A stretch of 64,000 nt of DNA from NCBI GenBank assembly GCA_023382175.1, contig JAMCQB010000063.1, positions 133-64,132 on the forward strand, in the 5' to 3' direction. The notes under the pieces are model-generated. The model searched no databases. It worked only from the letters and a program-made list of their open reading frames with translations, and was not told the origin of the DNA. Shown piece after piece: positions 6,610-49,085 of the stretch; within the stretch, counting starts at the first letter, position 1, and every line of letters begins with the position of its first letter. Source of the DNA: Nitrospirota bacterium. Lineage in GTDB: Bacteria; Nitrospirota; Thermodesulfovibrionia; Thermodesulfovibrionales; UBA9159. The position numbers and the translations under genes are program-made.

Positions 6610-7785
6610 GTGCTCAAAACCATCAGTGATAAAGCGCTCTCAGGGCAAAGGCTTACCCGTGAAGATGCAATCGAACTGTTCCATTCCGACGACCTATTCA
6701 CCATCGGCAGGCTTGCTGCCCATGTAGCAGAGAAGAAGAATGGGAAGAAAGCCTTTTTCGTTGTGAACCGGCACATCAACCCCACCAACATCTGCGTAAA
6801 CCGGTGCAAGTTCTGCGCCTTCAGCCGGTCAAAAGGGGAGGATGGAGCTTTTGAATTAACGATCGAGGAAATCATCAATAAGCTAAAGGACGAAACGGAG
6901 AATCGGAGAATCGGAGAAATGGAGCGACAAGGAAACAGCAACACTACTTCACCGATTCACCCAATCACCGATTCACCCAATCACCGATTCAGGGAGGTGC
7001 ACATTGTAGGAGGGCTCCATCCTGACTGGTCCTTTGAGCGCTACTGTGCGATGCTCCTTGAAATTAAGAAAACGTTTCCCTCCATTGCCATAAAGGCGTT
7101 TACTGCAGTGGAGATAGACTATTTCTCAAGGATAAGCGGGCTGGCGGTGAGAGAAGTTCTTGAGAGATTGAAAAAAAGCGGCCTTCAGGCGATGCCCGGA
7201 GGAGGAGCCGAGATATTTGCGGAAAGGGTGAGGACGAAACTCTGCCCTGAAAAGATATCAGGGGAACGGTGGCTTGAGATTCATAGAACAGCCCACCTCT
7301 GCGGAATACCGACCAATGCGACCATGCTTTACGGCCACCTGGAATCCTATGAAGACCGGGTTGACCATCTCATGAGGCTTCGTGGGCTGCAGGATCTCAC
7401 CGGAGGATTCCAGGCATTCATCCCCCTGGCATACCACCCGAGGAACACCGACATCGGCGGCTTTTACACCTCCGGCATTGATGATCTGAAGACCATTGCC
7501 ATCAGCAGGCTTTTTCTGGGTAACATTCCCCACATAAAGGCGTACTGGATCATGCTGGGGGAGAAGATCGCCCAGGTGTCACTGCTTTTCGGAGCAGACG
7601 ATCTGGACGGGACGATTGTGGAGGAGAAGATTACCCATTCCGCCGGCGCAATGACCAGTGAGGGCCTGACGAGGAAAGAACTGGTGACCCTCATAAAAAA
7701 GGCAGGGAAGGTTCCTGTGGAGAGGGACGCCTTTTATAACGCTGTCCGATTAAGAGCGAGAAAGAGAAATTGTCATTGCGAGTGA
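6610..7785 (+). CDS. mqnE: radical SAM menaquinone (futalosine pathway) enzyme, MqnE/MqnC family; aminofutalosine synthase most likely
   Basis: GTG start. The CxxxCxxC cluster motif is NICVNRCKFCAF. Family blocks PGGGAEIF, NATMLYGH, GGFQAFIPL, IKAYW and FGADDLDGT are present. The family call is firm; MqnE versus MqnC is not resolvable by eye. The gene carries an in-frame repeat insert (6895..6990), and its last codons run into a REP element. Confidence 0.8.
   Translation: MLKTISDKALSGQRLTREDAIELFHSDDLFTIGRLAAHVAEKKNGKKAFFVVNRHINPTNICVNRCKFCAFSRSKGEDGAFELTIEEIINKLKDETENRRIGEMERQGNSNTTSPIHPITDSPNHRFREVHIVGGLHPDWSFERYCAMLLEIKKTFPSIAIKAFTAVEIDYFSRISGLAVREVLERLKKSGLQAMPGGGAEIFAERVRTKLCPEKISGERWLEIHRTAHLCGIPTNATMLYGHLESYEDRVDHLMRLRGLQDLTGGFQAFIPLAYHPRNTDIGGFYTSGIDDLKTIAISRLFLGNIPHIKAYWIMLGEKIAQVSLLFGADDLDGTIVEEKITHSAGAMTSEGLTRKELVTLIKKAGKVPVERDAFYNAVRLRARKRNCHCE
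6895..6990. repeat. tandem-unit inverted repeat inserted in frame in mqnE
   Basis: Left arm GGAGAATC GGAGAATC GGAGAAAT GGAG, a 23-nt spacer, then right arm TTCACCGATTCACCCAATCACCGATTCACCCAATCACCGATTC (GAATCGG / CCGATTC complementarity). It encodes TENRRIGEMERQGNSNTTSPIHPITDSPNHRF between EEIINKLKDE and REVHIVGG. Confidence 0.75.
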
Positions 7786-7845
7786 AGCGAAGCAATCTCG
7801 CCTTTGTGCATGAGATTGCCGCGGTCGAAACGACCTCGCAGTGAC
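7772..7845. repeat. REP-like palindromic element (gtcattgcgag family)
   Basis: GTCATTGCGAGtgaagcgaaGCAATCTCgcctttgtgcatGAGATTGCcgcggtcgaaacgaCCTCGCAGTGAC. It overlaps the last 4 codons and the stop of mqnE. The same modules occur inside the two MITE copies. Confidence 0.7.
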
Positions 7846-7867
7846 AGATTGACAAAGTGTGAGGGGT

Positions 7868-9037
7868 CTATTTCTCTTTTTTCCCCATTCCCCTTATGTA
7901 TCGTATCCTCTCCAGGATCGGCGGGTGGGAATAATACATCGTGACATAGAGCGGATGGGGAGAGAGGTTCGAAAGGTTCTCCTTCGAAAGCTTCACAAGC
8001 ACACTCACCATGCTTTCTGTATCCCTGGTTAGCTCATGGGAAATCCTGTCAGCCTCCCGTTCATGCCTCCTCGAAAAGGAATTCATCAGCGGCCTCAGGG
8101 GCATGGAAAGGATCCCCCCCAGAAAGGCCAGAAGCATGGCCTTGGCAAAAAGGGTGTTCTGCGCTATCTGAAAAAGAGAGAGAAGGAAGTCGCTCCGGAT
8201 GAGCCGGAACGAGACATAAAGGGTGACGAGGGAGACGGCTTCAATCAGGGCCATGCTTTTCAGGAGGTGCCGTTTCTTCCAATGGCCGATTTCGTGGGCA
8301 AGCACCGCAAGAATTTCGTCGTGGGTCATCCCCAGGAGGAGAGTGTCGTAAAGGACGATCCTCTTTGTTCTTCCGATGCCGGTGAAATAGGCGTTGGTAT
8401 GTCTCGATCTTTTTGAAGCATCCACCCTGAGCACCCTGCTTGCATGAATTCCCGCTTTACTGGCAAGGGCGATGATCTTTTCCCTGAGGGCTTTGTCTTC
8501 CACAGGGGTAAACTTGTTGAAAAGGGGCTCGATGACATAGGGAGAGATGTACATGATGAATATGCTAAAAACGAGAAGGAACCCCCATACCAGCAGCCAC
8601 CAGTGATCCGGGCTCCACTGGATAAGCCACAGTCCTCCAAAGATGATCACAGACAACAGAAGCGTTGAAATAAGGATGGACTTCAGGAAGTCTGATACCC
8701 ACAGCTTCGGCGTCATGGTATTGAACCCGTAAGCATTTTCTATCCTGAAGGTTTGATAGAGACTGAAGGGCACGGAGAGGAATTCGCCGGCACAGGAGAG
8801 GAGCATGAAGAAGAGCCATCCTGAGACGAGAAAGGGGAGGTTAAGGGATGTTATCCATGAATTATAGAAATTCAGCAGCCCGCAGAAAATGAAGACAATG
8901 ACGGTGATATCCCCGAAGAGGGATGAGACAAAACCGAAGCGGGTCTTATCTGCTTCATAGTCCTGAATCCTTCTCATTGTGGTTTCGTTCATGCTTCCTT
9001 CAAACTCGTGGGGAACGACTGCGCCTTTCTTCCTCAT
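7868..9037 (-). CDS. M48 family zinc metalloprotease (Ste24/HtpX-like), multi-pass membrane
   Basis: 389 aa with several TM helices, the HEIGHWKKRH zinc motif and a downstream EREAD. The start codon is uncertain (the alternative M16 is at 8992). Confidence 0.85.
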   Translation of the reverse strand: MRKKGAVVPHEFEGSMNETTMRRIQDYEADKTRFGFVSSLFGDITVIVFIFCGLLNFYNSWITSLNLPFLVSGWLFFMLLSCAGEFLSVPFSLYQTFRIENAYGFNTMTPKLWVSDFLKSILISTLLLSVIIFGGLWLIQWSPDHWWLLVWGFLLVFSIFIMYISPYVIEPLFNKFTPVEDKALREKIIALASKAGIHASRVLRVDASKRSRHTNAYFTGIGRTKRIVLYDTLLLGMTHDEILAVLAHEIGHWKKRHLLKSMALIEAVSLVTLYVSFRLIRSDFLLSLFQIAQNTLFAKAMLLAFLGGILSMPLRPLMNSFSRRHEREADRISHELTRDTESMVSVLVKLSKENLSNLSPHPLYVTMYYSHPPILERIRYIRGMGKKEK

Positions 9038-17093: not shown

Positions 17094-18278
17094 ATGCGGA
17101 CAAGAACAGCACAGAGAGGTCTGAAGAAGCGTTTCCTGTTGTTGTCTGGTGTTGTCATTGCTTTCCTTCTCCTCTATTGGGGAATTTCGTTTTCTGAAGA
17201 ACTTCCCCTTTGCGCAGGATGTCATAAGAAACAAGTGGAGGGAAAAGAGCTGCATCCCGTGATGAAAACTCAGGGATGCGTATCCTGCCACACAAAACCC
17301 CATTCGAAGACGGCAAAACCCAGGAAGTTTCTTCCTGCAACAGGGGTGGACCTTTGCTGGGGATGTCACGACAAAACAAAATTTTCCCGTCAAGTGCAAC
17401 ATCGTCCTGTTGCCGAAGGTCAATGCATGTCCTGCCATAATGTTCATGTGTCGGATTTCCCGAAGCTGCTGCTTTCGAATATGCCGGACTTATGCTTTAA
17501 TTGCCACGATAAAGCCAAGTTCATGAACAAGACCACCCATCCGCCCGTTGCCGGCGGCATGTGCACGTCGTGCCACGACCCCCATAGCAGTGAAGTGGAA
17601 AAACTGCTCATCTCCTCATCGCCGGGGTTATGTTTCAGTTGTCATGACAAACAGAGGTTTTCCGGCAAGAAAGACGTCCATGTGCCTGTTGCAGACGGGC
17701 TCTGCCTGTCCTGTCATGAGCCTCATGCTTCTGCCGGAGAGAAACTTCTCGTGAAGCAGGCTCCGGAGCTCTGTTTCAACTGCCATACGAAAAGTAAGTT
17801 CGAGGGTAAGAAAGTCATGCATTCGCCGGTTGCGGGCGGCCTGTGCTTAAACTGCCACGCTCCCCACCAGTCGGACTCGGCAAGACTGCTTCTTGCGGAG
17901 ATGCCTGCCTTGTGTTTCACCTGTCATGACAAAAGCGATTTTTCACATAAAAATGTTCATCCCCCTGTTGCGGGCGGCCTGTGCATGTCCTGCCATATGC
18001 CGCACTTTGCAGATAACAAAAAGCTGCTCCCGTTACGGGTCAACGACCTGTGTCTGGAGTGTCACCCTCAGGTTGCCCAGGAGCCCCATGCAGTGAGCGG
18101 TATGACAAAGGTCGGACATCCCCTGGCCAGCAGGAGGGTAAAGGTCGTGGATGGCAACAGGGTAAAGCTCTCCTGTCTTTCCTGCCACGAACCTCACAGC
18201 TCCGACTGGATCAGGCTTTTCAGGTACAGGGCAAACACGCCTTTTGAAATCTGCGCCCGTTGCCACAAGAAGTTTTAG
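17094..18278 (+). CDS. multihaem cytochrome c, 15 CxxCH motifs, N-terminal signal anchor
   Basis: I counted 15 CxxCH motifs in 394 aa. Most lie in repeated ~37-aa two-haem modules (C.xCH DK.KF...HxPVAxGxCxxCHxPH), which resembles a cytochrome c7/c3-type polymer. Confidence 0.9.
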   Translation: MRTRTAQRGLKKRFLLLSGVVIAFLLLYWGISFSEELPLCAGCHKKQVEGKELHPVMKTQGCVSCHTKPHSKTAKPRKFLPATGVDLCWGCHDKTKFSRQVQHRPVAEGQCMSCHNVHVSDFPKLLLSNMPDLCFNCHDKAKFMNKTTHPPVAGGMCTSCHDPHSSEVEKLLISSSPGLCFSCHDKQRFSGKKDVHVPVADGLCLSCHEPHASAGEKLLVKQAPELCFNCHTKSKFEGKKVMHSPVAGGLCLNCHAPHQSDSARLLLAEMPALCFTCHDKSDFSHKNVHPPVAGGLCMSCHMPHFADNKKLLPLRVNDLCLECHPQVAQEPHAVSGMTKVGHPLASRRVKVVDGNRVKLSCLSCHEPHSSDWIRLFRYRANTPFEICARCHKKF

Positions 18279-29508: not shown

Positions 29509-32169
29509 TCACCTATCCAGCATCTCCCGCACCTTTCTCAGAAGCTCCTTTGGTGAGACAGGCTTCAGGATAAAATCCAATCCCTCTTCAAGTATCCCCT
29601 TTTTATGGATGAGGTTTGCTGTGTAGCCGCTTAGAAACAAGGTCTTTATGCCGGGATTGATTTTTTTGATTTCTTCATAGACCTCTTTGCCGTTCTTCTT
29701 CGGCATTATGACATCGAGGAGTAAAAGTTGTATATCCTCTTTGTTCTCCATGAACTTTTCTATTGCATCCTCCCCATCCTCTGCCGCTATGACTCTGTAC
29801 CCGAATCTCTCAAGTATATCCCTTGTCAGCTTTCTTACAGCCTGATCATCCTCTGCTACAAGCACTGTCTCTGTTCCTCCCTCCGGGTAGGCGGCAGGCA
29901 TTGTACTCGCTGTCTTTTCAACCTCTGATTCAATCAAGGGAAGATATATCTTAAATGTCGTGCCTTTTTGTGGTTCACTGTAGACATTTATAAAACCATC
30001 GTGCTGTTTTACTATCCCGTAGACCATCGCAAGCCCGAGACCCGTGCCCCGGCCGAGTTCTTTGGTCGTGAAGAATGGCTCGAATATCCTCTGCCTCGTC
30101 TTCTCATCCATACCGCTGCCTGAATCTGTTACTGACAATAGGGCATATATCCCGGCCTCTCCATAGCCATGTTTCTTTACATACTCTTCATCAATCTGGA
30201 TGGTTCCGGTCTCTATGATCAAATCACCTCCGACAGGCATGGCATCCCTCGCATTGGTTGCAAGGTTCATCACTATCTGCTCTATCTGGCCCCTGTCTGC
30301 CAATACTGTTAAATCCTTATCTAAAAGCTCTGTCTTTAATTCTATATCCTCGCCTATAATCCTCATTAGAAACTTTTCAACGCCCTTTATGATTTCATTC
30401 AGATTCTGGGGCTTCAGGTCTCTTATCTGCTTTCTGCTGAAGGCGAGTAAGCTCTGTGTCAGATGGGATCCCCTTTCTCCCGCATCAAGTATCTCTTTGA
30501 GATAGGCCCTATTGGGGTCGTCTTCCCTCGTATTCATTTCTATAAGGTTCCCGAATCCTATTATTGCATTGAGGATGTTGTTAAAGTCATGGGCAATGCC
30601 GCCGGCAAGCTGACCAATTGCCTCCATCTTCTGGGCCTGGCGGAACTGTTCTTCTAATTTTTTTCGCTCGGTGATGTCTCGTGTAATGCACACAAAGCCT
30701 GTATGCTCGCCCCTGTCATCCTTCAGTGCGGTGAGCGTCATTTCCACAGGGAATCCCCTTCCATCCTTTTTAATCCTCCCGGTTTCAGCCCTGACAGATC
30801 CTTCCAGGGTCGCTTTTTTGAACCTCTCACGGCATGCCTCTTGAGCCTCCTTCGGGACTATCAAGGAGTGCGGCCTGCCGATGATCTCTTGAGCAGAGTA
30901 GCCAAATAGCATTTCCGCACCGCGGTTCCATGAGACGATGTTAGTATCCAGGTCTATGCCCTCTATTGCATCAGTGGCGTGCTCTGTGATGTTTGCGAGG
31001 AATGCCCGCACCTCTTCAGCCCGGTTACGCTCTGTGATGTCGAGCAGTGTTCCGATGACAGCGGGGCGTCCACGATATACCGTTTTAGAGCCGTAAACTT
31101 CTACATAGATTATCTCTTTATCCTTTGTTATACCTCTAAAATCATAATTAATGGATTCAATCTCACCCGAAATCCGCTTCCGAAGATTTTCCTCAACGAT
31201 CGGCCAATCTTCTGGTAAGACCAGGTCCTCAGGTCCCCTCTTATCTATCAATTCATAGATGGTGTAGCCAAATATCTCAGCCAATCTTGAATTGGCATAC
31301 CTGAAGACCCCGTCCTGTATAAGGTAAACGCCGACTATTGATTTTTCTGCCAGGTCCCTAAATTTGTTCTCCGATTCCCGCAGTGCTTCTTCAGCATGCC
31401 TGCGTTCAATTATTTCGGCCCGCAATGCTTCATTAGCTTTGGCCAGTTCCGCGGTCCGCTCCGCAACTCGCACTTCTAACTCATCATGCGCCTTTCTCAG
31501 CGCTTCTGCATCTCGCTTCCGTTCCGCTATGTCATGACTCGCGTTGTTGATAACAAGTCCCAGACCCAGAACAAAAAATGAAAGTGCAGTATTGAGCGCC
31601 ATTGGTATTGTTGTCCCGCCATAAAGTAATGGCGCACCATAGATGTAACCTAAACAGAAAGCTAAACCAATAAAGGTTGTCAGTCCGGCCAGTACCCTTG
31701 TTAGAGCATCCGCAGACCAGCGTCTTTTCAAAGATGAGGCAAGAAAAAGCGCAACGCTTGCAAACAAGAAATTGAGGGCGGTAGGCAAAGCCATCCGGCC
31801 CACAGGAATAAGACCGAGTTTCTCCGATGGAACCTGAAAAATCCATCTATCAACATCCAGATTAATATTTACACTAATCTCTGTGGATCGGATCAGAGAT
31901 AGAACGAAAATCACGGTAGCGCCGATTCTTGATAATGTAAGACCCCTCTTTCTCTCCGTTAAGAGCGCACAAAGTGATATGCCAAGTACAATGAAGGAGA
32001 GGGCTGTATTTGGCGCCATGGGGATGTAATCTGTCCGTATACCGGAGAGGATTCTCCATCCCGTCAGCCAGCCCACAATGGCAACCACCCCTAATCCTGC
32101 CGCAATGAGACCGCAGAGTTGCGAAAAGAATTTAAAAGGGATTAAAGAATGATTGGATTGAGTGGTCAT
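29509..32169 (-). CDS. hybrid sensor histidine kinase HK1 (multi-TM sensor, PAS x2, HisKA, HATPase, REC)
   Basis: 886 aa. N-terminal polytopic region with a duplicated PMAxNTALSF motif; H-box [11 protein letters not shown]; G-boxes DSGSGMD and GTGLGLA; C-terminal receiver VLVAEDD...[13 protein letters not shown]. Confidence 0.9.
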
Positions 32170-32509: not shown

Positions 32510-32896
32510 TTACTGCTTCCAGGTTGATACAGCATCAACCTTACCCTCTGTCAGGGCATCAAACATCTCCTTTGGACTCAGATTAACGACCTCAACTTCA
32601 TCCCTTAATATCCTATGAGAGATTAAGAAAGTCTCCATGAAGAACTCTCCTTTTATTACTGCATTGAGGGCCTCTTTCCCTGTGTTATATTCTTGAAGCT
32701 TGACATCTAAGCCCTCCTTTTTGAAGTACCCCTTTTCAACTGCAATATACACAGGAGCTCTATGCAGCCCGCTTCCCACAGCATAGGTTATTTTCACAAG
32801 CGGCGCCTGTTTCTGGCTGAACCAGATAGTACCAGCTATAACGACAATCAGAGCCGTCAGAAGAAATGCAAGGACGAGTTTTGGTTTAAGCTTCAT
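32510..32896 (-). pseudogene. remnant of a periplasmic substrate-binding protein (NMT1/SsuA-like) carrying the HK2 leader
   Basis: 128 aa against the ~320 expected. An internal jump occurs after NAVIKGE, and the ORF stops right after VDAVSTWKQ. The first 53 nt including the start are identical to the HK2 5' end (35606..35658). Confidence 0.55.
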
Positions 32897-32953
32897 CTTG
32901 AAACCCTCCTTTTTCTCACCTATCCTCTCCTTATTCCTCCCCTTAGTAAGGGG

Positions 32954-35656
32954 TTAATCCAGCACCCTTCTCACCTTTCTTAAAAGCTCTTTTGGTGAGA
33001 CAGGCTTCAGGATAAAATCCAATCCCTCATCGAGTATCCCCTTTTTATGGATGAGGTTCGCTGTATAGCCGCTTAGAAACAACACCTTTATGCGGGGATT
33101 GATTTTTTTGATTTCTTCATAAACCTCTTTGCCGTTCTTCTTCGGCATTATGACATCAAGGAGTAAAAGCTGAATATCCTCTTTATTGTTCATGAACTTT
33201 TTTATCGCATCCTCCCCGTCCTCCGCCGCTATTACCTTATATCCGAATCTCTCGAGCACATCCCTTGTTAATTTTCTGACTGCCTGATCATCCTCTGCTA
33301 CAAGCACTGTCTCTGTCCCTCCTCCCGTGTAGACAGCCGGCGCAGCACTCACTGCCTCCCCGGCCTCTGATTTAATCAAGGGCAGGTATATCTTAAATGT
33401 CGTGCCTTTCCCAGGTTCACTATAGACATTGATATAGCCGTCATGCTGTTTTACTATCCCGTAGACCATCGCAAGCCCAAGGCCTGTGCCCCTTCCCATC
33501 TCTTTGGTTGTGAAGAAGGGTTCAAATATCCTTTTCCTCGTCTCTTCATCCATACCAATGCCTGAATCTGTAATAGATATTAATGCGTATATTCCCGGCT
33601 CCCCATAGCCATGCATTTTCACATATTCCTCATCCATCTCTGTAATCCCCGTCTCTATGATTAATTCTCCACCATTTGGCATGGCATCCCTCGCATTGGT
33701 TGCAAGGTTCATCAATACCTGCTCTATCTGGCCCCTGTCTACTATTACTGTTAAATCCCCTACCCCCCTTTCAATTCCCCCCTTGCCAAGGGGGGACACA
33801 GAGGGGTCAAAGAGGGGCAAGGAGGGATTTAGTATTGTCTTTAATTCTATATCCTCGCCTATGATCCTCCTTAAAAATTTTCCGACGCTTCTTAATATTT
33901 CATTCAGATTTTCAGATTTTGGACTGATTATCTGTTTTCTGCTGAAGGCGAGCAGACTTTTTGTTAGATGGGCTGCCCTTTCCCCTGCACTGAGTATCTC
34001 TTTTAGATAGGCCCTATTAGGGTCGTCTCCCTTCATATCCATCTCTATGAGGTTCCCGAATCCTATTATTGCATTGAGGATGTTATTAAAGTCATGGGCA
34101 ATGCCGCCAGCGAGTATGCCAATCGCCTCCAACTTCTGGGCATGCCTCAATTGGTCTTCGAGATTCTTGCGCTCTGTGATGTCGCGAGTGATGGTCACGA
34201 AGCCTATGTGCTCCCCTTTCTCGTTTTTCAGTGAGGTAAGCGTCATTTCTGCCGGAAACCGCCTGCCATCCTTCGCAACCCTAAGGGTTTCAGCCGTTTT
34301 GACGAGTCCCTCGAAGGTCGCTTTCTTGAACCTCTCACGGCAGGCATCCTGAGCCTCGTGGGGAACGACCATAGACCATGGCTTTCCGATAACCTCCTTT
34401 GCTTGGTAGCCGAATATCATCTCTGCGCCACGGTTCCACGAGACGATGTTAGTATTCAGGTCCAGACCTACTATCGCATCGGCGGCATGCTCTGTTATGT
34501 TTGCGAGGAATGCCCGCTCCTCCTGCGACTCTGCAAGCTGCGAAGCCATTCTGTTAAATGACGAGGCAAGGTCGCCGATTTCGTCCTTTGATTCAACAGG
34601 GGCGCGGACAGAAAAATCCCCTCCAGCAAGTCCTTGCGTGGCCTTTGAAAGGGCAACCACAGGACGGGAGATTCCATGGGCGATGAGATAGGCTAAGATA
34701 GATGCAAGCAGTGCAATTGCAACGCCCAGCGCAATTACGCGCTTCCTGAGGGACTCAACAGGCGCGAAGGCCTCCCTCGTTTCGATCTCAGTGAGCAGAG
34801 TCCAGCCCCTGCCCGGGATGCACATGGAGGCGCCTATCACCTCCCTGCCGAGATAATTCCTGTAAATTCCGGAGGTTTCTCTTCCGGCGGCGCACTCAAG
34901 CACAGGCAGGGTCTCTACACGCTGCTTCATAAGCTCACTGCTGAATCGTGAAGGGGTAATCAGCAGCTTCTCCTTATTCACCAGGTAGATGTCGAGGGTT
35001 TCCCTCCTGCCCAGCGTGCCGCTTATTGCACCCTTTTCAATCTGGTACTCTCCAGAGAGCATTTTTCTCAGCTCGTCATGGTAGTAAAAATTAATGATCA
35101 CGCCAAGAGGATTGCCGGTCTTTTTATCGGTCAGCGGTGCGGCAGCAGCAATGTATGGCCTCTTTCCCTCTGTGGGGCGGGGAGGTATGTACATATCGCT
35201 TATGTAAACGCCTTTTCCCCCCTGCAGGAAATACTCGTCCTCCGATTCATCAGCGCCTATCTCGCCCTCCTCGGTTGCGGCAATCACCCTTCCTTTCATG
35301 TCCGTGACAAGAATCAGGTAGATACCCATGTCGTGGTGCATCTTGTTGTGCTTCAGGTACATGCTCAGCGCCTTTTGCAGCCCGGTATAGCGCGGGCCTT
35401 TCGGGTCTAACTTCTGCATTGCTTCAGCGCTATTGCGGATGAAGCCGTCAGAGGAAAGCTCCATCGCCCTGTCCTTCGCCATCTCGAAAAAGTGGTAGAG
35501 GACCCACTCTTTAGCTTCGGCTACGAGGGTTAAATCTTCCAATGCCTGCCTTTGCAGCGCTGCCTTAGCGGAGCTGTAGCTCAGGTAGCCGATGACGGCG
35601 ACGGGAATCAGAGCCGTCAGAAGAAATGCAAGGACGAGTTTTGGTTTAAGCTTCAT
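32954..35656 (-). CDS. hybrid sensor histidine kinase HK2 (TM, Cache-like periplasmic domain, HAMP, PAS, HisKA, HATPase, REC)
   Basis: 900 aa. The C-terminal ~500 aa are closely paralogous to HK1 (e.g. [37 protein letters not shown]). The N-terminal sensor differs from HK1. It contains a 21-codon palindromic insert. Confidence 0.9.
33753..33830. repeat. GC-rich nested palindromic element, copy B (inside the HK2 CDS, in frame)
   Basis: AAATCCC-ctaccccccTTTCAATTCCCCCCTTG-C-CAAGGGGGG-acacagaggggtcaaagaggggcaagga-GGGATTT. It encodes ..[23 protein letters not shown].., which is absent from HK1. Confidence 0.8.
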
Positions 35657-35983
35657 CTGGTAGCCCTCCCCCAGCTCTTATTTCATCTGGATAGAAATTA
35701 TCCTATATTAGAGCTTAATCCAATACCATCAGTCCGTCAAGCCTCATTTACCATAATCCGCAGCCAATATGACAAACAAGCGGGCGAACTCATTCCCGGC
35801 ATCGCACCCCTTTTCTTAAAGGAGCGCCCTTGGTCTCTCCTGCAAAGTATAGCAGCGCTGCAGGAATTATCAACGTGAAAGTGGTCCTGGCATTCCCCGG
35901 GGTGAAAGCAATATGGTAATTTTTATTTGATTCCGTTATTATCTAAAGGGAGTGAGCGGCATATCTTCACAAGGAGGCTGTGC

Positions 35984-39807: not shown

Positions 39808-40542
39808 TTACATATACATGCCGCCGTTCACATGGACCACCTGGCCGGTGATATACCCGGTAGACGCCAGAAATGCGACGGCGTTTGCAACATCATCTAT
39901 GGTTCCGAACCTGGCCATAGGAATCGCCTTTTTCATTTCTTTCTTCACGTTCTCGGGGAGCGCATCGGTCATGGCCGTCATGATAAAGCCCGGGGCAACG
40001 GCATTCGCGGTTATCCCTCTGCTCGCATATTCCTTTGCGATCGTCTTTGTCAACCCGACAATGCCGGCCTTTGAGGCGCTGTAGTTCGCCTGTCCGGGAT
40101 TGCCCGTGAAGGCGACGACAGAGGCGATATTCACGATCCTTCCGTAGCGCTGCTTCGCCATGATCTTCACCGCCTCCTTTGAACAGAGGAACACCCCCTT
40201 CAGATTCACATTGATGACCGCGTCCCAGTCTTCCTCCTTCATCCTCAGCAGAAGGCTGTCTTTGGTTATGCCCGCATTATTGACGAGGATGTCCAGCCTC
40301 CCGAATTCCTTCACGATATCTTCAAAAGTCTGTATCACCTCCCCTGAGTGAGACACATCAAGCCGCACGGCCATGGTCCTGACACCCAGGCCTGCCACTG
40401 CGGCGGCGGTTTCCTTTGCCTCATCGAGCTGTATATCAGCGATGACGATATCAGCGCCCTTCCCGGCAAGGGCTTCCGCTATTGCCCTCCCTATGCCCCG
40501 CGCACTTCCTGTGACAAGGGCAACCTGACCTTTAAATTCCAT
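39808..40542 (-). CDS. fabG: 3-oxoacyl-ACP reductase
   Basis: The start was moved to [18 protein letters not shown], which has GGAGG 7 nt upstream. SDR motifs NNAG and YSASK are present. Confidence 0.92.
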
Positions 40543-40651
40543 CTGCACACCTCCCCCTAAAAGACGGCTATCATTTTAACAGAGAAATCTTTTTATTTTC
40601 CAGTCTTTTGTGAAACTCAGAAAATCTTGTTGAAAAAGCAGGAGATAATCC

Positions 40652-40800
40652 AGCAACTCACGGTGAAATCGCAAAGGCTTGAGATTGCTTCCCCCGTATC
40701 AAGTACGGGGTCGCAATGACAAAATAAAAGTCCGTAAAGTGTCATTGCGAGGAGTCTTTATTCCGAAGCAATCCAGTCACTATTCACCGTGAATTGCTGG
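40652..40800. mobile_element. 149-bp MITE, copy 1 (fabG / synthase intergenic region)
   Basis: Terminal inverted repeats (C)AGCAACTCACGGTGAA ... TTCACCGTGAATTGCT(G). It is flanked by direct repeats (GG)AGATAATCC and (GG)AGGTAATCC. It differs from copy 2 at about 9 positions by my count. Confidence 0.8.
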
Positions 40801-40892
40801 AGGTAATCCAAAAATTTGCAATAATCAGTGGCTTTTTAGTTATAATACCCGTCAATTATAAACGAAGTACAGGCGAAAGGGGTTGAACGTTC

Positions 40893-42128
40893 ATGCGCCA
40901 CAAAGTGTATCTCATTGACGTGACCGATAGAGACGGTGTCCAGACCTCGAGAATACTGCTGCCGAAACTTTCAAAGACCATGTTGAATCTCTATCTGGAT
41001 GAAATGGGTTTTTACCAGAGCGAGATGGGCTTTCCCACGTTAAAACATGAAGTGAACTATATTAACGCCAACCTTGAACTGGTGAAGCTCGGCGCTATAA
41101 AGAGGATTCACCTGGAGGGCTGGTGCAGGGCAGTGCCTGAAGATATTGAACTGGCATTCAAGAACTGTCCGGAAATCAAACACCTGAATATTTCCATGTC
41201 GACATCAGACATCATGATTCAGGGGAAGTTCCAGGGCAGGAAGACATGGAAGGACATCATCGATTCCCTGGCGAAATCGGCGAAACTGGCAAAGGAACTG
41301 GGCGTGGAGACCCTGGGTGTTAACGCTGAGGACGCGTCCAGGACCGAACTGAGCAAGCTGATCGAGTTCGTACTGGCGGGGAAGGAAGCGGGAGCGGACA
41401 GGTTCCGGTACTGCGATACCCTTGGCGTGGACGATCCCATCACCATTTACGAGACCATAAAGGCCCTGACCCTGGCTACCAGATTTCCCATTGAGATGCA
41501 CTGCCATAATGACCTCGGCATGGCTGAGGCGGTATCCGTGGCAGGGGCTCAGGGAGCCGTAGACAGCGGGGTGGACGCCTATATTAATACCACAATCAAC
41601 GGATACGGGGAACGGGCAGGCAATTGCGACCTCGTTTCGACGATCCTTGCACTGAAGTTCTCCCATGGGCTGAAGACCAAGATCCCCCTTGATGAGCATA
41701 TTGATCTGAAAAAGGCATGGAAGATGGCAAAGTATGCATCCTATGCCTTTAATATCCCTATACCGATAAATCAGCCCGGGGTGGGGGCAAATGCCTTTGC
41801 CCACGAGTCGGGCATTCATGCCGACGGCGCTCTGAAGGACCGGCGGAGCTATGAGCTCTATGACCCCGAAGACGTGGGCAGGGGCGAGCCGGAACTCCTT
41901 GAGACAGGAAGGATCATCACCACCGGTGAATACGGCGGAGTCAAGGGCTTCAGGCATGTGTACGACAAGCTGGGGATCCATTTCAGCACTGACAATGATG
42001 CGAGGAGGATTCTGGAACTGGTCCAGTACGCGAACCTCCATACCCAGAAACCACTCACCGACGACGAACTCCGGCTCATTGCGAGTTATCCGGACGTTGT
42101 CAGGAAGATCCTCACGGTAAACCCATGA
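40893..42128 (+). CDS. HMGL-like isopropylmalate/homocitrate/citramalate synthase family protein (candidate Re-citrate synthase)
   Basis: 411 aa. [10 protein letters not shown] (a variant of DTTLRDGEQ), [11 protein letters not shown] and NGYGERAGN. The stop overlaps the start of the isocitrate dehydrogenase-like gene (ATGA). Confidence 0.7.
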
Positions 42129-45954: not shown

Positions 45955-45975
45955 TGATTCTTAATGGGAGGAGAG

Positions 45976-46389
45976 ATGGAAAATACATTATCGATTGTAA
46001 AGCCTGACGGCGTTAAGAAGAATGTCATCGGAGAGGTTATTTCGAGGTTTGAGAAAAACGGCTTGAAGGTCTCTGCGCTGAAGATGCTCCATCTTTCGAA
46101 GAAAGAGGCGCAGAAGTTCTATGTTGTCCACAAGGAAAGGCCTTTCTATGGAAGCCTTACCGAATTCATGTCAGAAGGCCCCATCGTTGTGATGGTGCTG
46201 AGCGGCGATAATGCCATTGCAAAGGTGAGGGGAATAATGGGCTCCACCAATCCCAAGGAGGCCGCTCCCGGAACCATCAGAGCTGACTTTGCATCGGACA
46301 TTGAACGCAACATCGTCCATGGCTCTGATTCACCCCGGTCCGCCGCATACGAGATACCTTTCTTTTTCTCTTCGCTGGAGATTCTGTAG
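45976..46389 (+). CDS. ndk: nucleoside-diphosphate kinase
   Basis: The start was moved to [12 protein letters not shown], which has GGGAGGAG upstream. The NIVHGSDS active-site His is present. Confidence 0.95.
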
Positions 46390-46426
46390 GAGCATATCGG
46401 CCAAAAGTTTGTATAGAGTACACCCC

Positions 46427-46575
46427 AGCAATTCACGGTGAAATCGCAAAGGTTTGAGATTGCTTCCCCCGTATCAAGTACGGGGTCGCAATGACAAAAT
46501 AAAATTTCGTAAAGTGTCATTGCGAGGAGTCTTTATTTCGAAGCAATCCCATCAATATTCGCCGTGAATTGCTGC
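46427..46575. mobile_element. 149-bp MITE, copy 2 (ndk / clpC intergenic region)
   Basis: The TIRs match copy 1 (AGCAATTCACGGTGAA ... TTCGCCGTGAATTGCT). It is flanked by the perfect 10-bp direct repeat AGTACACCCC (46417..46426 and 46576..46585). Confidence 0.85.
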
Positions 46576-46640
46576 AGTACACCCCCCCTCGGTTGACAAT
46601 CACCATGGAAAAGCATTATTATTTTTTTAGGAGGTTCACC

Positions 46641-49085
<2,445 letters not shown>

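Follow-up and report, generated by a model that had tools for sequence, protein, structure and literature searches.

The 64-kb stretch of DNA analysed here (the window) belongs to contig JAMCQB010000063.1 of the Nitrospirota bacterium assembly GCA_023382175.1 and contains two copies of a 149-bp sequence with inverted-repeat ends. Copy 1 is located between a fabG-like gene (39808-40548, - strand) and a divergent homocitrate-synthase-like gene (40893-42128, + strand), and copy 2 is located between ndk (45964-46389, + strand) and a clpC-like gene (46642-49085, + strand). Both are very probably non-coding MITEs (miniature inverted-repeat transposable elements) that are mobilised in trans by the Tn5-like DDE transposase of an insertion sequence (IS) family. 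As a kind of MITE they are ordinary: they make up a new family of MITEs, one linked to a Tn5-like IS family with the NCBI label ISNCY. Two features lie above the routine, namely an orientation-specific association with promoter -35 hexamers and a cargo consisting of a widespread, undescribed hairpin module, and both are supported statistically.

The two copies align with 9 substitutions and no insertions or deletions (93.96% identity over 149 bp), which agrees with the initial annotation of this DNA, where two 149-bp copies with about 9 differences had been reported. A repeat search of the window finds only one such pair, at 93% identity over 153 nt. Similarity between copy 1 and copy 2 stops abruptly at the ends of the inverted repeats, which indicates that the DNA flanking the two copies is unrelated. 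The terminal inverted repeats of the MITE are 17 bp long, CAGCAAYTCACGGTGAA and TTCRCCGTGAATTGCTG, and 16 of the 17 positions are complementary in each copy. The consensus of the window copies is CAGCAA[C/T]TCACGGTGAA for the left repeat and TTC[A/G]CCGTGAATTGCTG for the right repeat, and the repeat motif occurs just four times in the window, at the ends of both copies. The inverted-repeat ends had been recognised in the initial annotation, and the copies had been located there with boundaries one base off: the full repeat, CAGCAA...TTGCTG, bounds 40651-40799 and 46426-46574. The same annotation had described flanking direct repeats, which are real and different at each copy, although their length is 9 bp and not 9-11 bp. 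Each copy has its own 9-bp flanking duplication. The duplications of copy 2, AGTACACCC, match at 9 of 9 positions, and the right one is displaced by 1 nt; a metagenomic relative (L132) has an equal displacement.

The interior of the MITE is an inverted pair of a module, GTCATTGCGAG-[variable stem-loop]-GAAGCAATC, and includes both the CCCCGTA-tcaag-TACGGGG hairpin and the GTCATTGCGA modules that had been singled out at the outset. The predicted fold of each copy has an energy of -64 to -68 kcal/mol (z about -9 against shuffled sequences) and is equal on both strands. The only open reading frames (ORFs) that overlap the copies are antisense and run into neighbouring genes, and there is no credible gene in the 149 bp. 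No promoter was found within the MITE, the strong promoter matches being in host sequence downstream of it. A role as an intrinsic terminator was considered and rejected, as no T-run or terminator-like site occurs in or beside either copy. The coordinates of the copies, their parts, and the associated features are collected in Table 1.

Table 1. Coordinates of the two MITE copies, their component parts, the downstream host promoters, and the related hairpin in the window.
Feature	Position	Strand	Remarks
MITE copy 1 (149 bp)	40651-40799	+	alignment, repeat search; identical copy in GCA_023485285.1 (L121)
Copy 1 left 17-bp terminal inverted repeat, CAGCAACTCACGGTGAA	40651-40667	+	same terminus on IS family
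Copy 1 right 17-bp terminal inverted repeat, TTCACCGTGAATTGCTG	40783-40799	+	contains 11-bp palindrome TTCACNGTGAA
Copy 1 left target-site duplication, GAGATAATC	40642-40650	.	8/9 match to 40800-40808
Copy 1 right target-site duplication, GAGGTAATC	40800-40808	.	
Copy 1 hairpin module A, GTCATTGCGA-C[CCCGTACTTGATACGGG]G-GAAGCAATC	40683-40720	-	includes CCCCGTA/TACGGGG hairpin 40692-40710
Copy 1 hairpin module B, GTCATTGCGAG-GAGTCTTTATTCC-GAAGCAATC	40741-40773	+	
Host promoter of homocitrate-synthase-like gene, TTGCAA-19 nt-TATAAT	40816-40846	+	-35 starts 16 nt from copy 1 right end
MITE copy 2 (149 bp)	46426-46574	+	alignment, repeat search
Copy 2 left terminal inverted repeat, CAGCAATTCACGGTGAA	46426-46442	+	
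Copy 2 right terminal inverted repeat, TTCGCCGTGAATTGCTG	46558-46574	+	
Copy 2 left target-site duplication, AGTACACCC	46417-46425	.	
Copy 2 right target-site duplication, AGTACACCC	46576-46584	.	one extra C (46575) between element and duplication
Copy 2 hairpin module A	46458-46495	-	CCCCGTA-tcaag-TACGGGG hairpin at 46467-46485
Copy 2 hairpin module B	46516-46548	+	
Host promoter of clpC-like gene, TTGACA-18 nt-TATTAT	46593-46622	+	11/12 matches; -35 starts 18 nt from copy 2 right end
Related hairpin without terminal repeats (74 nt), GTCATTGCGAGTGAAGCGAAGCAATCTC-loop-GAGATTGCCGCGGTCGAAACGACCTCGCAGTGAC	7772-7845	+	same module, head-to-head with inverted copy; not part of MITE copies

The MITE has relatives with the same ends, 135-176 bp long, in assemblies of other Nitrospirota and of Desulfobacterota, where they occupy unrelated sites. 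Besides the two window copies, 11 full and 2 truncated relatives are present in other assemblies. The 16-nt repeat, scanned against one genome per species, is too short as a pattern, so that among at least 120 loci listed most are chance matches and about 11 are real, while a repeat-gap-repeat scan of metagenomes added 8 loci (L130-L137), 5 of them from one sample. The relatives include a 137-bp element in bacterium BMS3Abin06 (L039), a 176-bp element in a Nitrospirota metagenome-assembled genome (MAG; L037, 1022-1197), a truncated copy in a Nitrospirae MAG that is 90% identical to those of the window (L114), and a 135-bp element in a Desulfobacteraceae MAG (L003). In several Nitrospirota MAGs, terminal repeats are found at contig ends. 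Recent spread is suggested by one metagenome, whose four 137-bp copies have 96-99% identity among themselves. A blastn search with the MITE against plasmids and phages yielded no match, and the repeat-gap-repeat pattern has 0 matches in viral contigs.

The duplications recur across the family. Among 13 repeat-bounded elements, 7 have perfect 9-bp duplications that abut the element, 3 have duplications matching at 7-8 of 9 positions (including copy 1), 2 have perfect duplications offset by 1 nt (including copy 2), and 1 has none. The 17-bp repeats are the most conserved part of the element, and the interiors are entirely different in L003 and L132. The 137-bp form becomes the 149-bp form when its GCTCCGC is exchanged for a CCCCGTATCAAGTACGGGG hairpin, and a left-truncated copy with this hairpin also occurs in a metagenome. 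MITE interiors are modular (L133 2538-2685; L134 200-380; L037 1022-1197), with extra hairpins swapped into the loops: GTAGGGGCGTATTGCAATACGCCCCTAC in L133 and L134, and CCCCGTATCAAGTACGGGG in the window. In L037, CTCGCAATGAC units are tandemly triplicated.

An IS with matching terminal repeats, which the initial annotation had suggested looking for, is found in an IS family whose copies carry the same termini, CAGCAATTCACGG. These copies are about 1.43-1.9 kb long (closest about 1.73 kb) and encode a DDE transposase of 431-434 aa. A 1737-bp element in a Desulfobacterales MAG (L010) is bounded by these termini, and its 433-aa ORF gives a match to Pfam DDE_Tnp_1 above the cut-off (E 3.8e-7). 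Further IS with the same termini are located at L138-L142 and L272-L279, and at L031 an identical 17-nt repeat is followed 275 nt on by a family-transposase N-terminus. The termini of the IS family begin CAGCAATT(CACGG), as in the MITE. CAGCAATT termini flank nearly every homologue whose DNA was retrieved, at a distance from the ORF of about 80-330 nt (the closest relatives have about 220 nt), with the exceptions of a Legionella locus and one end of an Aureispira element. Many of the transposase's more than 6800 homologues are carried by isolated contigs of about 1.7-2 kb, a pattern that a repeated IS would be expected to give. The IS and the MITE also share a TTTCGTAAT motif, located about 55-67 nt in from the transposase-proximal end of the IS and roughly as far in from the MITE's left end, which suggests that the left half of the MITE derives from the transposase-proximal IS end.

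Perfect 9-bp duplications flank 6 of 15 IS copies. The most reliable junctions are those on complete plasmids of Saccharobesus (L145), Nostoc (L144 and L270), Acaryochloris (L267), and Anabaena (L271), where all elements start with CAGCAATT. A perfect 9-bp duplication is present in 4 of these 5 IS, and the Nostoc punctiforme element (L144) has a perfect 10-bp duplication. The Saccharobesus litoralis plasmid IS (transposase 45% identity) is flanked by TAAATAAAG, and the Acaryochloris, Nostoc edaphicum, and Anabaena cylindrica IS also have perfect 9-bp duplications, as do the IS on the longer metagenomic contigs L274 and L275. The MITE and the IS have in common both their termini and the 9-bp target duplication.

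Two further observations concern IS junctions. The IS has the 9-mer TACGCCGAG on its right side in L277 and on its left side in L278, which shows one insertion with a 9-bp duplication and contigs that are chimeric across the repeat. In L138 (650-730), two ends of the IS family face each other 10 bp apart (…GAATTGCTG-atgtaaacgc-CAGCAATTC…), which means adjacent or nested insertions.

The AlphaFold model of the transposase has a pLDDT of 81 and a pTM of 0.80, and its best structural matches in the PDB are to Tn5 transposase (1MUH, E 9e-11, TM about 0.5) over the full length; there is no PDB sequence match. Relatives on cyanobacterial plasmids are labelled 'ISNCY family transposase' by NCBI annotation, and tblastn gives 32-39% identity over 93-98% of the query to ISNCY-annotated coding sequences in Nostoc, Acaryochloris, and Gloeothece plasmids. 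The NCBIfam models for IS4, IS701, IS1380, and ISAs1 give sub-threshold scores only (best about 17 bits against a cut-off of 170), and the IS is therefore not filed in any of these groups. A tblastn search of the window finds no homologue of the cognate transposase, in line with the earlier statement that the 64 kb contain no transposase, with other transposase families not screened.

A contig of GCA_023485285.1 (L121) is 99.97% identical to the window, carries copy 1, and encodes an identical homocitrate-synthase-like protein. The closest homologues of this protein are found in Thermodesulfovibrionales and other Nitrospirota MAGs, and the sole genome found when it was used to look up an empty site is the near-identical one, which also carries copy 1. 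In sister loci (L122, L124-L129), with 88-94% identity in the flanking protein, gene order is kept and the element is absent at both sites. In one of them (L124), a single GGAAATAATC stands at the place of the window's duplication, in intergenic DNA that is not alignable across the junction. Both downstream promoters are conserved in the MITE-free sister loci and therefore pre-date the insertions.

The right end of the element is statistically associated with -35 hexamers. Elements were oriented by the transposase gene for a comparison of right/3' with left/5' ends, and a hexamer outside the element end was scored when it matched TTGACA at 5 or more of 6 positions, for which the background is 0.6% per position. 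A TTGACA-like hexamer lies at offset 16-18 in 8 of 31 right/3' ends (6 at exactly 17), compared with 0 of 26 left/5' ends (p 7.8e-9). Of all 56 evaluable flanks (57 collected), 9 have a hexamer at exactly 17 (p about 8e-11). The layout outside the right end consists of the 9-bp duplication, 8 variable nt, and the hexamer. The cases comprise full-length IS whose hosts are unrelated (those of L145 on a plasmid of Saccharobesus, of L138, and of L275, the last upstream of a cold-shock gene), MITEs of the window type (L039, L131, a truncated copy in L134, and copy 2 of the window), and two contig-end repeats (L036 and L120). Copy 2 fits at offset 18 because of its extra junction base.

A 135-bp MITE in L132 (2135-2269), which has the same repeats and an unrelated AT-rich interior, has TTGACA exactly 17 nt outside both ends; its target is near-symmetric, TGTCAA-N8-[9 bp]-N7/8-TTGACA. 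Most hexamers have a -10-like box downstream at a spacing of 16-18 nt (e.g., TATAAT, TATTAT, TAAAAT, or TAAATT), and they thus look like real sigma-70-type promoters that read away from the element. The 17 bases between the element end and the hexamer are not conserved and the window promoters occur in MITE-free relatives, which together indicate that the hexamer is host DNA and not part of the element. Distant cyanobacterial relatives mostly do not follow the -35 hexamer rule.

The hairpin module that makes up the interior also exists apart from the MITE. In the window, a related hairpin (Table 1) lies between convergent genes (6610-7785, + strand, and 7868-9037, - strand). Over its first 26 nt it matches the core of the L039 MITE without a difference, and both strands fold with a z of about -4.5. 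Viral contigs (IMG/VR, L146-L265) scanned for the pattern GTCATTGCGAG-[3-25 nt]-GAAGCAATC, which has 20 specified bases, gave at least 120 loci. Among the viral-contig matches listed, the module has at least 180 exact and at least 213 near-exact instances in 120 phage-like contigs with a total of 1.07 Mb. There are often several per contig, and they occur as singles, inverted pairs, and tandem arrays (e.g., L160 3339-12744, L191 2695-2818, L175 4598-4672).

The 97 distinct inserts among the matches listed form hairpins that vary widely in sequence and length while their stems remain complementary. Of these inserts, 28% have a closing stem of 4 bp or more, compared with 0% of shuffles, and the commonest are GCGNAGC mini-hairpins with all four bases at N. 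The matches listed contain 31 head-to-head pairs and 4 pairs in the MITE arrangement. Single modules have no strand bias relative to genes (33 same-strand, 25 opposite-strand), and there is no recurrent gene family next to modules in the phage contigs listed. The recurrent proteins of module-bearing contigs look like ordinary phage structural and packaging proteins, as judged from sequences read without formal annotation. Rfam has 0 matches in 12 module-rich phage loci, and the window at 7740-7880 gives only noise at E up to 10. No paper containing the terminal-repeat or module sequence was found in the searchable literature. With 20 conserved flanking bases, a hypervariable complementary stem, abundance in phages, and absence from Rfam, the module is a candidate new structured nucleic-acid element.

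These features can be combined into a model in which the MITE would be mobilised in trans by the DDE transposase of the IS family with shared termini. The transposase would bind the 17-bp inverted repeats, excise the element by cut-and-paste, and integrate it with 9-bp staggered cuts, as the Tn5-like predicted fold and the 9-bp duplication suggest. The right (transposase-distal) end would be set 17 ± 1 nt upstream of a TTGACA-like -35 hexamer, a distance that corresponds to the 9-bp duplication plus about 8 nt, and insertion at that distance would leave the core promoter intact. This -35-linked preference would have placed the two copies where they are, upstream of the homocitrate-synthase-like gene (copy 1) and of the clpC-like gene (copy 2), and the cargo of the MITE would be an inverted pair of an independently widespread hairpin module. 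The window copies are old insertions (6% divergence and slightly decayed duplications) and are probably inert passengers now.

The 149-bp unit could instead encode a structured non-coding RNA, or act in cis as a regulatory RNA upstream of the adjacent homocitrate-synthase-like and clpC-like genes, with the copies as paralogous RNA loci. The predicted fold is very stable and multi-branched, both copies have the same orientation and lie 67-93 bp upstream of + strand genes, and the interior variable hairpins keep complementary stems across many instances. However, the equal folding of both strands is what is expected of a DNA palindrome, Rfam at gathering thresholds has no match in the window, and compensatory changes are found at none of 47 pairs across 11 family members, in which variation breaks pairs. 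The conserved host promoters downstream place the element upstream of the transcription start of the adjacent gene, and neither the target duplications nor the IS-type termini are explained by an RNA, which makes this identity very unlikely. Local segmental duplication or gene conversion, with direct repeats that arose by chance or belong to the duplicated block, has practically no probability. In its favour, the only two copies visible in the window are 5.8 kb apart in the same orientation, but identity ends exactly at the inverted repeats between unrelated flanks, each copy has a different 9-bp duplication, and same-ended elements with perfect 9-bp duplications occupy unrelated loci in other phyla. 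The initial annotation had held that the MITE interpretation would fail if only two copies existed within a segmental duplication; further copies exist, homology stops exactly at the repeats, and segmental duplication is refuted by the copies in other genomes.

The interior pair of short hairpin modules raises a different identity, namely a REP/REPIN-like hairpin doublet moved by a tyrosine transposase (RAYT or IS200-IS605-type), to which the outer repeats would be incidental. Modules without outer repeats, at 7772-7845 and in at least 31 head-to-head phage pairs, do resemble REP doublets. REP/RAYT and IS200/IS605 systems, however, lack terminal inverted repeats and do not duplicate their target, whereas here 9-bp duplications are the rule and the 17-bp repeats are better conserved than anything between them. 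There is also no recurrent gene family beside the modules, with a RAYT gene not searched genome-wide, and a REP-like origin is accordingly hard to credit. Selection in place of targeting is compatible with the MITE identity and bears on the promoter association alone: copies would be retained since their right end supplies a regulatory site, such as the TTCACNGTGAA palindrome near -65, that modulates the promoter. The same spacing and orientation to promoters in independent copies and the 11-bp palindrome in each terminal repeat would fit this proposal. It is improbable as the explanation, given that the same 17-nt spacing is found for full-length IS in unrelated hosts and replicons and for a MITE with an unrelated interior (L132), and that exact single-nucleotide phasing in many lineages is easier to reach by target choice than by selection from random insertions.

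The TTCACNGTGAA palindrome lies at 40657-40667, 40783-40793, 46432-46442, and 46558-46568 in the window, and in the right ends its centre lies roughly 65 nt upstream of the downstream promoter's predicted start. The palindrome is a candidate binding site for either the transposase or a host protein.

Several points weigh against a MITE family that is mobilised by this transposase and directed to promoters. The duplication of copy 2 is offset by 1 nt and that of copy 1 has one mismatch, and just two copies are visible in the available source DNA. No family transposase is shown in the organism's own genome, of which the visible DNA consists of 64 kb and one 30-kb contig. Among the IS copies, 9 of 15 are without a 9-bp duplication, and some short metagenomic contigs are chimeric across the repeat (L277/L278). 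There is no clean empty site: the intergenic DNA of the sister loci is too diverged to align across the junctions, so an empty site could not be demonstrated base by base. Copy 1 fits the target rule only loosely (TTGCAA, 4 of 6 matches, offset 16), the rule itself is a preference seen at about a quarter of right ends, and selection on retained insertions may contribute to the target bias. With these points considered, the observation of a repeated, repeat-bounded element is confirmed, and its interpretation as a transposed MITE is supported by its size, its repeats, the family-wide 9-bp duplications, the copies elsewhere, and the partner IS.

A more far-reaching proposal, on which the evidence is about evenly balanced, is that the family targets promoters in one orientation, with its distal end 17 bp upstream of the -35 hexamer, either by direct reading of TTGACA or by sensing of RNA polymerase, and that its module cargo is an undescribed widespread structured element. 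No description of -35-directed IS insertion was found in the searchable literature. If the proposal is true, the family would be a promoter-directed, gene-sparing bacterial DDE transposon, and it would bear on how mobile elements find safe sites, on how they rewire DNA upstream of promoters, and possibly on programmable insertion tools. Naming the element also has practical value, as it prevents mis-annotation. The palindromic interior yields spurious ORFs, and the repeat breaks assemblies, with several terminal repeats located at contig ends.

The window contains two other sets of repeats. Tandem units of 138-141 bp, five to six in number and with CxxCH-type codons (e.g., CTGTGCATGTCCTGCCAT), occupy 17364-17997 and are presumably a repeated multihaem cytochrome c domain. 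At 29515-31014 and 32957-34522 (also 32841-32909 and 35601-35669) lie paralogous blocks about 3.45 kb apart that are 77-93% identical, which suggests a tandemly duplicated gene set.

Correia/NEMIS elements of Neisseria and RUP of Streptococcus pneumoniae are bacterial MITEs. The MaeMITEs of Microcystis are bacterial MITEs as well (PMC2779907). The present element resembles bacterial MITEs in its length (100-250 bp in the group), lack of coding capacity, IS-matching terminal repeats, target duplications, intergenic location, and strong hairpin formation. It differs from those MITEs in its termini (CAGCAATTCACGGTGAA) and partner IS, in a duplication of 9 bp and not TA or 2-4 bp, in its position- and orientation-specific association with -35 hexamers, and in an interior module that exists independently of the transposon.

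The IS family is similar to IS50/Tn5 of the IS4 family in its predicted fold over the full length, its Pfam DDE_Tnp_1 match, and the single transposase ORF between short inverted repeats. IS50 and IS10 have a 9-bp target duplication, as in the present family. Unlike IS50/Tn5, the transposase shows only 13-14% identity in structural alignment, and its termini differ from those of IS50 and IS10; Tn5 is not known to have a promoter-linked target choice. ISNCY is the holding group of ISfinder. The cyanobacterial elements labelled 'ISNCY family' (Nostoc punctiforme pNPUN02 WP_234711115.1, Acaryochloris marina S15, Gloeothece PCC 7822) have homologous transposases, CAGCAATT termini, and 9-bp (in one case 10-bp) duplications. 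They are distant relatives, with their own longer and different inverted repeats beyond the first 8-9 nt, and only 1 of 5 has a TTGACA-like hexamer at +17. The ISMae2 group may have 9-bp duplications as well. The Microcystis genome paper gives no details on ISMae2 ends.

The interior module alone is comparable to REP, REPIN, and BIME sequences, which are short imperfect palindromes, often arranged as inverted intergenic doublets and present in many copies per genome. REPs are typically lineage-specific, whereas the 20 flanking bases of the module are common to very different genomes and phages; its central hairpin is hypervariable yet complementary, and no associated RAYT gene is seen. Target-specific elements include IS1397 and ISKpn1, which insert in REP loops, IS1111-attC elements, and Tn7, which inserts at attTn7. 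The present family is like them in that it inserts at a defined distance and orientation to a recognisable host feature and spares genes, and unlike them in that the feature is a sigma-70-type -35 hexamer.

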